This document shows positions 43,836 to 49,481 of a stretch of DNA of 49,481 nt, one piece after another. The first letter of the stretch is position 1, and each line of letters opens with the position of its first letter. Position numbers and translations under genes: made by a program. The notes below the pieces were generated by a model. It had not been told where the DNA came from and searched no databases. It saw only the letters and a list, made by a program, of their open reading frames with translations. This stretch comes from Dehalococcoidia bacterium (GTDB lineage: Bacteria > Chloroflexota > Dehalococcoidia > GIF9 > UBA5629), in the NCBI GenBank assembly GCA_050014895.1, contig JBEKCL010000001.1:1-49481 (forward strand), written 5' to 3'.

Positions 43836-43866
43836 TGCGCACTCCCACATTGTCCCTGTAAAACAG

Positions 43867-44073: not shown

Positions 44074-44871
44074 TTACGAGGGGAGCATATCAGAAGATGA
44101 TTTCAGATATAAAACCATGGTTATTGATTTATCGGACTATGCTATTTTACGATCAAGGATTTTTGCGATGACGGCCGGTTACAAATAGTTCGTTAGCAAA
44201 ATGTTAGCAAAGCCTTATCATGCGGCAGCAACCAATAAGACTAATATGTAAACCTTCGGGTTATGAATTTTAGTAACAGGCTATTAAAAGGTGATTTCAC
44301 GTTCATAATGCTACATTTATTCTATTTTAGAAAAACCTTTTCTAATCACGGATATTGACACGTGTTCATTAATATTTATTAATCCGTTAGCTTTTTTCTT
44401 AACATGATTTAACTACAAGGGCTAAATTTTCACGCTACCCATGATTGGTATATCTAAATTAATGACTTAATAATAAAACTCCAACTCAAACCATAGACAA
44501 TCCTGGGTATTTACATTTAGAAACATAACAAAAAGCATCCGGAGGTAGTACCCTACCTACCTGCTTATATGATATTATTTACTTGCTATTGTGGAGGCTG
44601 AGAGAAAATAGGCGACTCCTCTTAAACATGGAATGAAAACAGCTTGGCTCTTACCGATTGCTCATTGTATTTACGAGAATTGCAGGCTTTTGATTGTTTT
44701 CTTTTATTAAACCCCAAAATAGCTAACACATGAGACAACAAATCATCTTGGATTGGAGAAAAATAGCGCCTTTGAATACTGGGACGCGCTAAAAAGCGGA
44801 AGCTTGTTGTAATACAGCCAAATCATTTGGATATGCCATTTACCAATCATATATGCAATGGGAGTAGGGAT

Positions 44872-47800
44872 ATGAGTAAACTTGAGGATCTGAAACCAAA
44901 TGCTTCAATACGTGGCATCCTGCCAGATGCCCTCATCACAATCATAAGTGTTCAATGGTACGGTTCGGATGCCGTTAATATAACGTATAAATCTGCCACT
45001 GGTAAGCTAGGAAATGAAATCCTCTATAGAGATAGTGAATCGCGAATTGAGATAGTTGAGCAAGGTCGCCCATGGAGTTTTGATGGCAATGGCATGCTTT
45101 TCCGACTTGTTTCAGAAGCAAATCGCATTCAATTGGCGCATCTATTTGATCCTATTTTGGCTGTTCATACGTCCATGGTTGATCCCCTGCCCCATCAGAT
45201 TACAGCAGTATATGAAACAATGCTCCAGCGACAGCCACTACGTTTCTTGCTGGCAGATGATCCGGGAGCTGGTAAAACAATCATGGCCGGATTACTCATA
45301 AAAGAACTGATTGCTAGGGGAGATTTACAAAGGTGTGTCATTGTATGCCCAGGAAGCCTGGTCGAACAGTGGCAAGATGAATTATATCAGCGTTTTGCCC
45401 TGCCGTTCGAAATCATGACCAATGACAATCTTGAAGCGGCACGAACAGGTAACTGGTTTTTGGAACATGACTTGGTGATTGTCCGTTTAGACAAAATGTC
45501 ACGTGACGAAGATATTCAAGCAAAATTAGCGGCTCCCGATTGCCGCTGGGATCTAATTATATGTGACGAAGCCCATAAAATGTCAGCTACATTTTTCGGC
45601 GGTGAGATTAAGTATACCAAGCGATACAAGCTGGGACAGCTGCTTTCCACTCTGACACGTCACTTCTTATTGATGACAGCCACACCTCATAATGGGAAAG
45701 AGGAAGATTTCCAACTGTTTATGGCACTGCTTGATGGTGATAGGTTTGAGGGGCGATTCCGTGATGGAGTTCATGCTGTTGATGTTTCTGATCTAATGCG
45801 TCGGATGGTCAAGGAAAGTCTGCTAAAATTCGATGGCACTCCGTTGTTCCCAGAACGCATAGCTTATACAGTCCCCTATAAACTGTCTGATGCGGAAGCG
45901 AAGCTCTATAAAGATGTCACAGAGTATGTTCGAGAACAATTTAATCGGGCTGAAGCACTCCAGAATAACAAACGTGCTGGTACTGTCGGCTTTGCACTTA
46001 CCATCCTACAACGACGATTGGCATCATCACCTGAGGCCATCTATCAATCACTGCGTCGCCGTCGTGAAAAGCTAGAAAATAAGCTACGTGAGCTTGAGGT
46101 ATTGCAGCGAAGTAATGATATAACACGCACTCTTGCCGCAACAGCAAATGGAATTAGCGATGAGGAAATCGAAGATTTGGAGGATGCGCCTGATAATGAA
46201 GTTGAAAACGTTGAAGAAAAGGTCTTGGATCAGGCTACTGCTGCTAGCACTATAGCCGAACTCAAAACGGAAATCGCCAGTTTAAAGAACTTGGAGATAC
46301 TGGCTTTAGGAGTGAGGAGGGGCGGAGAAGATAAAAAATGGCGGGAATTATCGAGGCTTCTAACTGAAGAAATATTCACGCCTGCTGCAATTGTAAATAA
46401 AGTGGCTGAAGAAAAGGCCCCATACAAAGCAGGTAAAACTGATAAGCCAATACCATCCCCACGCCAGAAATTAATAATATTTACAGAGCATCGGGATACG
46501 TTGCGCTATCTTGAAGAACGCATTGCCACACTTCTTGGTCGTTCGGAAGCTATAGTTTGTATTCATGGTAGCATGGGCCGCGAGGAACGAAAGAAATCGC
46601 AAGAGGCCTTTACCAATGATCCTCAAGTACAAATACTGCTAGCCACCGATGCTGCTGGTGAAGGTATCAATTTGCAGCGTGCTCATCTTATGGTGAACTA
46701 TGATTTGCCCTGGAATCCAAATAGAATTGAGCAACGTTTCGGCCGAATTCACCGTATCGGCCAAACTGAGGTTTGCCATCTATGGAACTTAGTAGCAGAT
46801 GAAACCCGCGAAGGCGAAGTATATCAGACGCTTTTAAGAAAACTGGAAGAGGCGAGAAACGCACTCGGCGGTCAGGTATTTGATGTCCTTGGCAAACTTC
46901 AATTTGAAGGCAAGCCCCTGCGTGATTTACTAATTGAGGCTATCAGATATGGTGAGCGACCAGAGGTACGCGGACGGCTTACACAAGTGGTTGCCGACGC
47001 ATTTGATAAGGCGCACATCCAGGACCTATTAGAAGAACGAGCTTTAGCTCGTGATGCCATGGATGCCAGCCGCGTTAACAGAATACGCGAGGACATGGAG
47101 CGAGCAGAAGCGAGGCGCCTTCAACCGCATTATATAGAATCCTTTTTCCTCAAAGCATTTGAACAATTGGGAGGTACAATAAAACAAAGAGAACCTCGCC
47201 GCTTTGAGGTTACTCATGTACCTGCGATTATACGTAATCGGGACAGGATAATTGGCTTTGGTAATCCAATATTGCAGAGATACGAGCGCATAGTATTTGA
47301 AAAGACCCTGATATCACCTCCGGGCCAACCATTAGCAGCATTTGTTTGTCCGGGACACCCCTTGCTCAATTCAGTTGTAGATATCACTCTGGAACGTAAT
47401 CGTGACCTATTACGTAGAGGAGCTGTACTAGTAGATGAACGTGATGCAGGTACCGAACCCAGAGTCTTATTCTATTTAGAGCACAGCATTCAGGATGCTA
47501 ATACCACGCGATCAGGAGACAGACGTTTGATTTCAAAACAAATGCTTTATGTTGAAATTGATTCTGCTGGAAACGCCACACATCCACAATATGCTCCTTA
47601 TCTTGATTATAGGCCGCTTAGTTCAGATGAACCAACTATAGAAAGAATACTTAGTCGCCCGGAATGTAATTGGGTAAATCAAGACTTAGAGAAAACAGCG
47701 CTGGGTTATGCTATTAACAATGTCGTACCCATTCACCTAAAAGAAGTCCGCGACTATAAACTGGACTTGATTGCTAAAACCGAAGCAGCCGTTAAAGATC

Positions 47801-48456
47801 GACTCGTAAAAGAGATAGCTTACTGGGACCATCGTGCTCAGGAATTGAAGTTGCAGGAAGACGCAGGCAAGGTTAATGCAAGACTTAATTCGAATGAAGC
47901 ACGAAAGCGGGCGGAAGCCTTATACGAACGGCTTCAAAAACGCCTGGGAGATTTGACCCTGGAAAAACAGATCTCAGCTTTACCGCCTGTAGTACTTGGA
48001 GGTGTTTTGGTTATCCCGATTGGGCTACTGGCAAAAATAACTGGACGTCCTCTATCCAATAACTATGAATCTCCGGACAAACTGGCAGCTGCGGCCAAAG
48101 CCCGTTCAATCATTATGGAGGTGGAAAGGGCTCTTGGTTTCGAACCTACTGATCGGGAAATGGACAAACTTGGCTATGATATAGAAAGTCGGATTCCGGG
48201 TAAAGGAAAACTTAGGTTCATTGAAGTAAAGGGGAGGACCACAAGCGCTGATACACTAACTGTTACGCGCAACGAAATACTCTATTCATTAAATAAACCC
48301 GACGACTTTATCCTGGCTATGGTTGAATTCTTTATCGGTGATAATCATCGGGTACACTACCTTAGACAGCCATTTCGAAGAGAGCCTGATTTTGGTGTTA
48401 CCAGCGTCAATTATGATTTCGCGGAGCTATTAGCGAGAGCGGAGGAGCCCCGGTAG
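44872..48456 (+). CDS. SNF2/SF2-family helicase with a C-terminal DUF3883-like (D...EVK, restriction-endonuclease-like) domain, 1194 aa from the preferred start
   Basis: The preferred ATG at 44872 follows GGGAGTAGGGAT. LLADDPGAGKT (motif I), IICDEAHKM (motif II), MTATPHNG (motif III), QRFGRIHRIGQ (motif VI). C-terminus GYDIESRIPGKGKLRFIEVKGRTTSADTLTVTRNEI. Confidence 0.8.
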   Translation: MSKLEDLKPNASIRGILPDALITIISVQWYGSDAVNITYKSATGKLGNEILYRDSESRIEIVEQGRPWSFDGNGMLFRLVSEANRIQLAHLFDPILAVHTSMVDPLPHQITAVYETMLQRQPLRFLLADDPGAGKTIMAGLLIKELIARGDLQRCVIVCPGSLVEQWQDELYQRFALPFEIMTNDNLEAARTGNWFLEHDLVIVRLDKMSRDEDIQAKLAAPDCRWDLIICDEAHKMSATFFGGEIKYTKRYKLGQLLSTLTRHFLLMTATPHNGKEEDFQLFMALLDGDRFEGRFRDGVHAVDVSDLMRRMVKESLLKFDGTPLFPERIAYTVPYKLSDAEAKLYKDVTEYVREQFNRAEALQNNKRAGTVGFALTILQRRLASSPEAIYQSLRRRREKLENKLRELEVLQRSNDITRTLAATANGISDEEIEDLEDAPDNEVENVEEKVLDQATAASTIAELKTEIASLKNLEILALGVRRGGEDKKWRELSRLLTEEIFTPAAIVNKVAEEKAPYKAGKTDKPIPSPRQKLIIFTEHRDTLRYLEERIATLLGRSEAIVCIHGSMGREERKKSQEAFTNDPQVQILLATDAAGEGINLQRAHLMVNYDLPWNPNRIEQRFGRIHRIGQTEVCHLWNLVADETREGEVYQTLLRKLEEARNALGGQVFDVLGKLQFEGKPLRDLLIEAIRYGERPEVRGRLTQVVADAFDKAHIQDLLEERALARDAMDASRVNRIREDMERAEARRLQPHYIESFFLKAFEQLGGTIKQREPRRFEVTHVPAIIRNRDRIIGFGNPILQRYERIVFEKTLISPPGQPLAAFVCPGHPLLNSVVDITLERNRDLLRRGAVLVDERDAGTEPRVLFYLEHSIQDANTTRSGDRRLISKQMLYVEIDSAGNATHPQYAPYLDYRPLSSDEPTIERILSRPECNWVNQDLEKTALGYAINNVVPIHLKEVRDYKLDLIAKTEAAVKDRLVKEIAYWDHRAQELKLQEDAGKVNARLNSNEARKRAEALYERLQKRLGDLTLEKQISALPPVVLGGVLVIPIGLLAKITGRPLSNNYESPDKLAAAAKARSIIMEVERALGFEPTDREMDKLGYDIESRIPGKGKLRFIEVKGRTTSADTLTVTRNEILYSLNKPDDFILAMVEFFIGDNHRVHYLRQPFRREPDFGVTSVNYDFAELLARAEEPR

Positions 48457-49481
48457 ATGCAACCGCCCAAGTATTTTTTAGCTATTCAGCAAAAGGCAAC
48501 AAGTAGATGGGATCAGCTTGATGCCGATCCTGATCTGGCCGGACCATGGCATCACCTGTTCAGGCAGGTTGCCCAAAGTCCTCGAAACGTGCTCTCCGAA
48601 CTTCTTCAAAATGCTGACGACGCAGATGCGACCGAGGCCTCAGTAGATATTATCGATGGCGAGTTCATCTTTTCACATAATGGAATTGACTTCAATAGCG
48701 AGCAGTTTCAGTCACTTTGCCGTTTCGGCTTCTCGAACAAGCGAGCCTTGCACACAATCGGGTTCCGGGGTATAGGATTCAAAAGCACGTTCAGTCTGGG
48801 CGACCAGGTGAGATTGTTCACACCTACCTTAGCCGTTGCTTTTAATGCTGGCCGTTTCACTCAACCAATTTGGCTGGCTAACGTGGCCTCCGAGAGCGGT
48901 CTGACAGAAGTCAGAATAAAAATAATAGATGAGCGTCGTGCGCGTGAGTTGGAGAAGAACATTAAGGAATGGATCTCCAATCCGACATCCCTTCTATTTT
49001 TTAGGCGGCTACGATCCCTTAGGGTAAGAGAGCAGGTGATACGGTGGGTGAATAGCAGACCTGGGCCGTGCGTTAATTCGCACTGGGTGTCCCTGTCAAC
49101 TGCACCAGATAAAGAATATCTTCACATCATATCACAGGATGAGCAATTTCCCGAGGAGGCATTGACGGAAATCAAACAAGAGTGCCCGAATCTGGAAAAA
49201 GAAACCACGTTCCCGCCTTGCAAGGTTGAGATCGTACTCGGCGTGTCTGGCAGGCTTTACGTCGTCTTGCCCACTGGGGTCAAGACTTCGCTACCTTTTG
49301 CCTGTAACGCTCCCTTTGTGCAGGACCCAGCCAGGCTGAAGATAAAAGAGTCCGAACTTTCACCAACGAATCGTTGGCTGCTGGCACGTGTTGGAAAGCT
49401 TGCGGGAGATTCCCTTATTCAATGGCTGAATAGTGGCACTTTGCCCGCCGCTGAGAAATGCCAGGCATACGATCTTTGGCC
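48457..49481 (+). CDS. Sacsin-like GHKL (Bergerat-fold) ATPase domain protein, N-terminal 341 codons. The ORF is still open at the window end.
   Basis: The ATG immediately follows the upstream TAG (TAGATG). N-box VLSELLQNADDADAT. G-box-like IGFRGIGFKSTFSLGD. LPFACNAPFVQDPARL. There is no stop codon through 49481, which is why it is missing from the ORF track. Confidence 0.7.
   Translation, partial: MQPPKYFLAIQQKATSRWDQLDADPDLAGPWHHLFRQVAQSPRNVLSELLQNADDADATEASVDIIDGEFIFSHNGIDFNSEQFQSLCRFGFSNKRALHTIGFRGIGFKSTFSLGDQVRLFTPTLAVAFNAGRFTQPIWLANVASESGLTEVRIKIIDERRARELEKNIKEWISNPTSLLFFRRLRSLRVREQVIRWVNSRPGPCVNSHWVSLSTAPDKEYLHIISQDEQFPEEALTEIKQECPNLEKETTFPPCKVEIVLGVSGRLYVVLPTGVKTSLPFACNAPFVQDPARLKIKESELSPTNRWLLARVGKLAGDSLIQWLNSGTLPAAEKCQAYDLW

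Follow-up and report, generated by a model that had tools for sequence, protein, structure and literature searches.

Two abutting genes lie at the right-hand end of the window analysed here, a stretch of 49,481 nucleotides from a Dehalococcoidia bacterium (contig JBEKCL010000001.1): the helicase gene hmaA and the beginning of a gene for a sacsin-type GHKL ATPase. We propose that this region is probably the 5′ part of an Hma (helicase, methylase, ATPase) defence locus, in which a GHKL ATPase that is dedicated to Hma, yet optional, is made and works together with HmaA. The helicase and the system are already known; the GHKL gene is a recurrent fourth Hma gene that is undescribed in the literature covered. 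Because hmaB and hmaC follow in most relatives, both probably lie just past the end of the contig.

The first open reading frame (ORF1) encodes a protein of 1194 amino acids; on the forward strand it starts with the ATG at 44872 and ends with the TAG at 48454−48456. An alternative TTG start at 44827 would extend it to 1209 amino acids; the ATG at 44872 has the purine-rich GGGAGTAGGGA just 5′ of it. An initial annotation, made from the letters of the sequence, had described a helicase with a full motif set, and all of the quoted motifs are present: GAGKT (residues 132−136), DEAH (232−235), TATPHNG (269−275) and QRFGRIHRIGQ (621−631). Pfam assigns SNF2-rel_dom/ResIII and Helicase_C domains, and between the helicase lobes, where the initial annotation had seen a coiled-coil-rich middle, the sequence reads as a highly charged stretch (residues ~385−520). 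The C-terminal nuclease module, earlier called DUF3883-like, contains the motifs GYDIES (1101−1106) and FIEVKGR (1116−1122) and is recognised by Pfam as NOV_C, the current name for DUF3883 (residues 1077−1163, E 2.2e-18).

PADLOC, which had been suggested as a check, identifies ORF1 as HmaA: model PDLC00659 matches with E = 0 and 1697 bits, residues 1−1193 aligning to positions 1−1172 of the 1176 in the model. Other PADLOC models that match ORF1 (DrmD, BrxH, DpdE and ZorD) score far below this, with 409 bits for DrmD and 302−328 bits for the BrxHI/BrxHII models. Assignment to DISARM DrmD was rejected (NCBIfam NF038317, 367.9 bits against a cut-off of 610), as was assignment to DpdE, where the NCBIfam equivalog score is under its cut-off. 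DrmD and BREX BrxHII have related SNF2 cores but, besides their lower scores, are described as being without a C-terminal active NOV_C nuclease. The nuclease residues D1103, E1118, K1120 and E1135 (in RNEILY) are the counterparts of D1084, E1104, K1106 and E1121 of Halomonas meridiana HmaA, the K-to-E spacing in NOV_C is identical in the two proteins, and the helicase residues K135 and D232/E233 are intact. Reading frames this long, with E = 0 for their family matches, lie far outside what chance would produce. Judged by its sequence, ORF1 is a genuine HmaA, a predicted SNF2-family helicase with a C-terminal NOV_C/DUF3883 PD-(D/E)xK nuclease. As it matches the HmaA model over its full length and keeps the catalytic residues, it belongs to a named family with an experimentally characterised prototype, and the initial statement that the two-gene architecture could not be matched to a named, experimentally characterised system is not supported (PMC8565338; PMC12839542).

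Hma was described as a three-gene candidate system in 26 phyla by Payne et al. 2021 (PMC8565338). The neighbourhood had been noted in 2013 by Anantharaman et al. as a restriction-modification-like operon that encodes an SNF2 helicase-DUF3883 fusion and a HEPN-DUF499 ATPase (PMC3710099), and was renamed in 2026 by Rakesh & Krishnan as the Type-1 DUF499-centred BREX-related (Type-1 BR) system, found in ~2400 taxa (PMC12839542). Liu et al. 2024 showed that H. meridiana HmaA alone, without HmaB or HmaC, protects E. coli against T4, that this defence needs the four NOV_C residues named above, and that the isolated C-terminal domain nicks supercoiled DNA; according to the abstract and section titles, the defence also depends on the helicase domain (PMC11232893). 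The defence role suggested for the pair by the initial annotation thus finds support in the family to which its helicase belongs.

The second open reading frame (ORF2) starts with the ATG at 48457, directly after the TAG of hmaA, and runs for 341 codons with no stop up to the last base of the window (49481). Its translation contains the previously noted motifs ELLQNADDA (residues 48−56) and GFRGIGFKSTF (102−112). The only public contig that we found to encode the exact ORF1 protein stops at the same base as the window, and ORF2 is therefore cut by the end of the assembly rather than by a stop codon; a megablast of the region against E. coli genomes gave no match. The NCBIfam model for the sacsin N-terminal ATP-binding domain (NF047352) matches ORF2 with 72.5 bits (cut-off 50), and Pfam SACS and HATPase_c_3 match weakly. 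An AlphaFold2 model built from 26 homologues (pLDDT 82, pTM 0.82) has Hsp90, TRAP1, GRP94, MutL, MLH1 and sacsin SR1 as its top Foldseek matches (probability 1.0, E ~2e-6), with alignments to Hsp90 N+M and MutL LN40, which bear on a possible second (transducer/S5-like) domain after the ATP-binding one, of 380−400 columns at TM-scores of just 0.3−0.5 and high root-mean-square deviation. In an alignment of 38 full-length relatives, E48, N52 and D54/D55 of the N box and G102, G105 and G107 of the G2 box are invariant; the ATP-binding motifs overall are invariant or nearly so, and align with those of MORC3. By motifs, NCBIfam match and predicted fold, ORF2 is a GHKL (Bergerat-fold) ATPase of the sacsin/Hsp90/MORC branch, in agreement with the initial reading of a sacsin-type partner. 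The sole PADLOC matches of ORF2 are Tiamat (TmtA) models, over its N-terminal part (residues ~37−341). We considered whether ORF2 could be HmaC and rejected this: HmaC is a DUF499 AAA+ protein, and ORF2 has no HmaC match in PADLOC, where the corresponding protein cluster of the relatives scores 1160 bits.

ORF2 is the first quarter of a protein of ~1400 amino acids. An alignment of its homologues was used to scan one genome per prokaryotic species, confirming at least 454 relatives, and the best 80 loci were examined. These come from Pseudomonadota, Chloroflexota, Planctomycetota, Acidobacteriota, Verrucomicrobiota, Cyanobacteria, Bacillota and Methanobacteriota, and their ORF2-like genes encode ~1400 amino acids (median 1405). 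A search with the C-terminal 1062 residues of a full-length member returned 863 cluster representatives, nearly all of 1400−1410 amino acids, whereas a first homologue search with the 341-residue fragment had listed only proteins below 600 amino acids. Databases name the full-length members at most 'sacsin N-terminal ATP-binding-like domain-containing protein', 'ATPase' or 'ATP-binding protein'. The family was not found in phage genomes.

Beyond the ATPase head, the full-length protein resembles little that is described. The profile of the 38 full-length members matched MORC3 (E 0.002) and sacsin SR1 (E 0.3) among the sequences of the PDB, and nothing there beyond the ATP-binding motifs; residues 373−1402 have no Pfam or PADLOC match, the TmtA and HEC/PDC candidates included, and the segments 373−799, 800−1259 and 1260−1402 have no PADLOC match at E ≤ 1. 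An AlphaFold2 model of residues ~260−1402 (pLDDT 77, pTM 0.38) has confident domains and an undefined overall arrangement, with a disordered linker and a compact C-terminal alpha/beta domain. Foldseek found nothing at E ≤ 1e-3 for this model of 1142 residues. The above-noise matches are weak: D212 (probability 0.96, E 0.3), Hjc, a splicing endonuclease and SPARDA. Their small size suggests that these PD-(D/E)xK-fold matches align to the C-terminal domain (the aligned region is unreported). No D...ExK or other canonical nuclease motif is conserved in this domain across the 38 members, and hence no effector domain is evident in the protein. The possibility that the domain is a degenerate NOV_C was rejected (hhalign against the NOV_C of HmaA, probability 0.15%). 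The predicted build thus begins with a GHKL head, continues with ~900 residues for which no relatives are detected and a disordered linker, and ends in a small alpha/beta domain. On sequence comparison the family is a distinct lineage, whose similarity to Tiamat and sacsin appears to be confined to the ATPase head.

Several genomes carry the GHKL gene as two open reading frames, divided at a place comparable to the end of ORF2 at codon 341, with products of 342+1053, 356+1015, 349... and 489+853 amino acids (splits or contig ends concern L113/L114, L037, L081, L002/L036, L080 and L003), and the window and an independent JGI contig both stop at codon 341 of ORF2. The splits could mean that the gene has repeatedly become a pseudogene, that it genuinely exists in a two-polypeptide form, or that something in the sequence breaks assemblies.

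The GHKL family is linked to Hma. Hma genes are present in 77 of the 80 loci, and in 68 an HmaA-like helicase lies immediately 5′ on the same strand, so that the helicase-ATPase pairing proposed by the initial annotation is seen across many phyla. Downstream, hmaB and/or hmaC follow hmaA-GHKL in 51 of the 61 loci with enough downstream sequence to be informative, and neither does in the other 10. The two downstream protein clusters are HmaB, an N6-adenine methyltransferase (DUF1156 + MethyltransfD12, 1516 bits), and HmaC (Swt1-HEPN + DUF499, 1160 bits). With hmaA adjacent on the 5′ side and hmaB and hmaC on the 3′ side, the dominant order in the relatives is hmaA-GHKL-hmaB-hmaC. The initial annotation had allowed that downstream genes might place the pair in a known system; this is the case in the relatives, while the window itself stops inside ORF2. 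Other loci are rearranged yet remain linked to Hma, the GHKL gene standing after hmaC (L039, L071, L072), divergently from hmaA (L069), or upstream of hmaA without hmaB/hmaC (L002, L037). All four plasmids that carry the GHKL family also carry hmaA. On a Burkholderia sp. PAMC 26561 plasmid the order is a helicase (absent from the record's gene table), an 'ATPase', a DUF1156 protein and a Swt1-family HEPN protein; on a Bradyrhizobium barranii plasmid it is WYL, helicase, three small open reading frames, 'ATPase', DUF1156 and DUF499. A Meiothermus taiwanensis plasmid has the canonical three Hma genes and no GHKL ATPase.

The GHKL gene is also coupled to hmaA at the junction. In the window the TAG of hmaA abuts the next ATG, as initially described. 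In the relatives the usual junction is an overlap of 4 nucleotides (44 loci), with overlaps of 1 nucleotide in 8 loci and 7 nucleotides in 5. In all, 57 of 65 GHKL genes (88%) overlap the hmaA stop codon, against 21 of 58 (36%) other next genes (Fisher p = 2e-9); for hmaB the figure is 3 of 9. Coupling to the hmaA stop codon is therefore shown to be specific to the GHKL gene. Where other cassettes share the hmaA-hmaB slot, in three metagenome loci (L086, L089, L093), GHKL comes first. Read-through of the single TAG at 48454−48456 would fuse the products of hmaA and ORF2; since the common 4-nucleotide overlap puts the two genes in different frames, such a fusion is not the conserved state.

A different reading of the window, the one first put forward, is that HmaA and the GHKL ATPase form an autonomous two-gene system here, without methyltransferase or DUF499 ATPase. 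A genuine two-gene form does exist, as housekeeping genes directly follow the pair in L062, L063 and L082; these belong with the 10 informative loci that have neither hmaB nor hmaC within ~4−7 kb, the pair occurs in reversed order without hmaB/hmaC in L002 and L037, and the T4 defence by HmaA is independent of HmaB and HmaC (PMC11232893). However, the predominance of loci with hmaB and/or hmaC, and the four-gene arrangement of several of the loci closest to ORF2 (L003, L004, L005), make this reading improbable for the present locus.

Several observations weigh against the view that the GHKL protein and HmaA are obligate partners. Among the 80 closest HmaA relatives, taken from metagenomes regardless of ORF2, 61 had enough downstream sequence, and GHKL stands next to hmaA in just 12 of these (~20%); of the remainder, hmaB directly follows hmaA in 7, is preceded by other inserts in 35, and is absent from the available sequence in 7. 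Similarly, just 4 of 64 plasmids with a full-length HmaA carry the GHKL gene. On a neighbour-joining tree of HmaA (125 taxa) the presence of GHKL requires at least 24 gains or losses (shuffled labels: mean 39, minimum 32), with carriers and non-carriers interleaved among the nearest relatives of the window's HmaA. Pairwise distances correlate at 0.94 for HmaA-HmaC and 0.61−0.83 for HmaA-HmaB, but at just 0.40−0.64 for HmaA-GHKL. The hmaA-hmaB junction is moreover a published hotspot for embedded defence cassettes (Hma-embedding preprint). Three of the 80 GHKL-family loci have no Hma gene in the available flanks, small open reading frames separate hmaA from GHKL in L085 (three), L019 and L032 (one each), and the genes downstream of ORF2 lie beyond view, as the window stops inside it. 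In GHKL-negative loci the slot holds Septu PtuAB, AbiL, HEC-01A or GmrSD-like HEC-05 cassettes. Another cluster (i1, ~516 amino acids; L135 at 5233−6906 and 11 other metagenome loci) is as frequent in the slot as GHKL, with 12 loci; it has weak PADLOC matches to Argonaute-associated SIR2-PNTD models and may be another Hma-embedded candidate.

These points raise the alternative that ORF2 is an independent, self-sufficient Tiamat-like defence gene in the hmaA-hmaB hotspot, co-regulated and co-transferred with hmaA but not working with HmaA. Besides the variety of known cassettes in the slot, embedding being reported for 63−67% of Hma loci, and the patchy distribution and weaker co-evolution described above, this alternative can draw on the match of the N-terminal ~330−370 residues to TmtA models, on the three members without Hma neighbours (one of which, L058, lies between HerA-like and UvrD helicases), and on the structural hint, itself weak, that the C-terminal domain may be restriction-endonuclease-like. 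Against it, known embedded systems occur mostly outside Hma whereas the GHKL family is found within it in 77 of 80 loci and in several arrangements; the coupling to the hmaA stop codon is specific to the GHKL gene; and the protein has no evident effector, with residues 373−1402 matching no TmtA, HEC or PDC model and no nuclease motif conserved. We consider an independent gene rather unlikely, and somewhat favour functional cooperation of the GHKL protein with HmaA, as judged from gene order, coupling and sequence.

The relation to Tiamat is limited to the head. TmtA models align to residues ~41−372 of the full-length relatives, and orthology was rejected, the best TmtA match reaching 183 bits against a model of 1486 positions over residues 41−372 only. 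Tiamat is reported as a stand-alone single gene with the ATPase head and a PD-(D/E)xK domain in one polypeptide, unlike the GHKL family with its place in Hma gene clusters and an active DUF3883 nuclease predicted on the partner helicase; our literature search found no paper on the mechanism of Tiamat/TmtA. The present locus resembles published Hma in its full-length HmaA with intact helicase and NOV_C nickase and in the continuation of the relatives' operons with HmaB and HmaC, but the published system has strictly three genes, whereas here a gene for a ~1400-residue GHKL protein recurs as a fourth and overlaps the hmaA stop. A GHKL/sacsin-like Hma component is absent from the main texts of Payne 2021, the Hma-embedding preprint, Liu 2024, Anantharaman 2013 and Rakesh & Krishnan 2026, and the term GHKL from the supplements of the last; figures and other supplements are outside this coverage, and an earlier mention there is possible.

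GHKL modules, such as those of MutL, Hsp90, topoisomerases and MORCs, dimerise upon ATP binding and reorganise complexes or clamp DNA. Such a role has been proposed for MORC/paraMORC ATPases whose genes stand beside those for SF2 helicases, nucleases and methyltransferases, in operons predicted to be restriction-modification-like (Iyer, Abhiman & Aravind 2008, PMC2292703). In the relatives, as in these operons, a helicase of SF2 type (SWI2/SNF2 included), a DNA methyltransferase and a nuclease of restriction-endonuclease fold are encoded next to the GHKL ATPase, and the ATP lid resembles that of MORC3. Unlike them, the closest sequence family is sacsin and not MORC, and the middle region is, as far as testable, unrelated to the described paraMORC extensions. 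Eukaryotic sacsin (SR1/SIRPT) has the same type of Hsp90-like ATP-binding domain, in a comparison that covers the first ~250 residues, and plant NO VEIN is the namesake of the NOV_C/DUF3883 domain on HmaA. NO VEIN combines a sacsin-like ATPase with DUF3883, the same two modules that are found here on adjacent genes; sacsin and NO VEIN have other cellular roles.

We propose that HmaA would act as an SNF2 translocase whose NOV_C/DUF3883 PD-(D/E)xK nickase is the DNA-damaging effector, and that the GHKL protein, co-produced through the stop-codon overlap, may work with it on DNA as a dimerising, ATP-driven clamp or sensor. In this role it could recruit, license or restrain the helicase-nickase on invading DNA. 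The arrangement would then be a split counterpart of Tiamat, with the ATPase head and the PD-(D/E)xK nuclease on separate polypeptides. A bolder version, which we put forward tentatively and hold to be somewhat doubtful, is that the GHKL protein is a dedicated partner subunit of HmaA and marks out an Hma subtype of four genes, hitherto unrecognised, as well as a minimal HmaA-GHKL system of two genes, where an ATP-driven clamp or sensor licenses a translocating nickase without a methyltransferase. If true, the two modules that NO VEIN combines, a sacsin-like ATPase and DUF3883, would jointly act on DNA in a prokaryote.

Few defence systems of prokaryotes are as widespread as Hma (Type-1 BR), whose helicase is so far its only component to have been studied by experiment. 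A recurrent, translationally coupled GHKL ATPase is a testable candidate regulator or sensor of HmaA, and cultured carriers exist (Rhodopseudomonas pseudopalustris DSM 123, Desulfobulbus elongatus DSM 2908 and Defluviicoccus vanus). For the sacsin-type ATPase module, which is poorly understood, the family would also be a tractable model in bacteria. Current annotation tools would leave the gene unnamed or mislabel it as Tiamat.

The surroundings of hmaA in the window show no marks of an island. The genes 5′ of it encode CheA, CheW, a methyl-accepting chemotaxis protein (MCP), a prepilin peptidase, a DUF2804 protein and a pilin-like protein and, an AT-rich intergenic gap aside, differ little from hmaA in G+C. 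The tRNA-integrated island supposed initially is not supported on the visible side of the locus, the left: ARAGORN finds 0 tRNAs, Rfam has 0 matches and there is no integrase in the window, while the right-hand side of the locus lies past the contig end. Such chemotaxis and pilus neighbours without island marks, together with the description of eukaryotic sacsin as a chaperone, would fit a housekeeping role in chromatin-like remodelling, repair or protein folding. This already disfavoured idea is very improbable, given the experimental demonstration of defence by an HmaA (PMC11232893), the sporadic occurrence of the family across phyla and on conjugative plasmids with frequent gain and loss, and the presence of ABC-three-component, pPIWI_RE, Septu and AbiL genes among its neighbours elsewhere. 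The features of the region are collected in the table below. Promoter-like hexamers in the AT-rich gap are no commoner than in shuffled sequence, and we therefore claim no promoter there.

Table. Positions in the window of the hmaA-GHKL region and its component features
Feature	Position	Strand	Basis or remarks
AT-rich intergenic region 5′ of hmaA, presumed promoter region	44189..44871	+	G+C down to 0.37
Shine-Dalgarno-like GGGAGTAGGGA	44860-44870	+	sequence just 5′ of hmaA ATG
hmaA, predicted SNF2-family helicase with NOV_C/DUF3883 PD-(D/E)xK nuclease, 1194 amino acids	44872..48456	+	PADLOC, Pfam
Helicase lobe 1 (SNF2-rel_dom/ResIII)	45181..45924	+	Walker A GAGKT 45265-45279, DEAH 45565-45576, TATPHNG 45676-45696
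Helicase lobe 2 (Helicase_C)	46459..46761	+	motif VI QRFGRIHRIGQ 46732-46764
NOV_C/DUF3883 nuclease domain	48100..48360	+	D1103, E1118, K1120, E1135; Pfam NOV_C E 2.2e-18
TAG-ATG stop-start junction	48454..48459	+	hmaA and ORF2 in same frame
5′ part (341 codons) of predicted ~1400-residue sacsin/Hsp90/MORC-type GHKL ATPase gene	48457..49481	+	NCBIfam, AlphaFold2/Foldseek, relatives
Bergerat-fold motifs: N box ELLQNADDA 48598-48624, HNGIDF 48676-48693, G2 box/ATP lid GFRGIGFKSTF 48760-48792	48598..48792	+	

Further observations concern the relatives and the rest of the window. A gene for a WYL-domain regulator lies 5′ of hmaA in 19 loci of the genome scan, mostly of Alphaproteobacteria (L016, L019, L023, L026, L029-L032, L034, L038, L041, L046, L048, L049, L054, L060, L062, L067 and L085), some of them with a divergent PD-(D/E)xK + UvrD gene pair farther 5′; the window has no WYL gene. 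In L058 (8079−16980) the GHKL member stands without hmaA between a HerA-like (DUF87) ATPase and a UvrD-family helicase, an arrangement which suggests that the GHKL protein can pair with other helicases. L007 (67−18937) has hmaA-GHKL without hmaB/hmaC, a pPIWI_RE (Argonaute-like) module 5′ and an Eco57I-like methyltransferase 3′, which might be a stand-in for HmaB. The closest plasmid HmaA, with 75% identity, is that of the Burkholderia sp. PAMC 26561 plasmid (L083, 14001−17571). Its alignment is broken into three pieces, and the PLSDB gene table, from which pseudogenes are left out, has no entry for it. It may therefore be a pseudogene; the GHKL, DUF1156 and HEPN-DUF499 genes of this locus are intact, and its flanks are an ABC-three-component system and an AAA ATPase + UvrD helicase pair.

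In the window, a strong 13-bp G+C-rich hairpin with a T run follows the pilin-like gene at 43865−43894; terminator-like on both strands, it closes the transcription unit that lies upstream of the AT-rich gap and hmaA. The region 1472−5979 at the left end contains a gene for a 1037-residue protein with N6_Mtase and Type_ISP_C specificity domains (Type ISP/IIG-like restriction-modification component) and, overlapping the end of this gene, an open reading frame for 465 amino acids without Pfam match. Signalling, pilus and chemotaxis genes separate this second restriction-related module from hmaA, which lies ~40 kb away.

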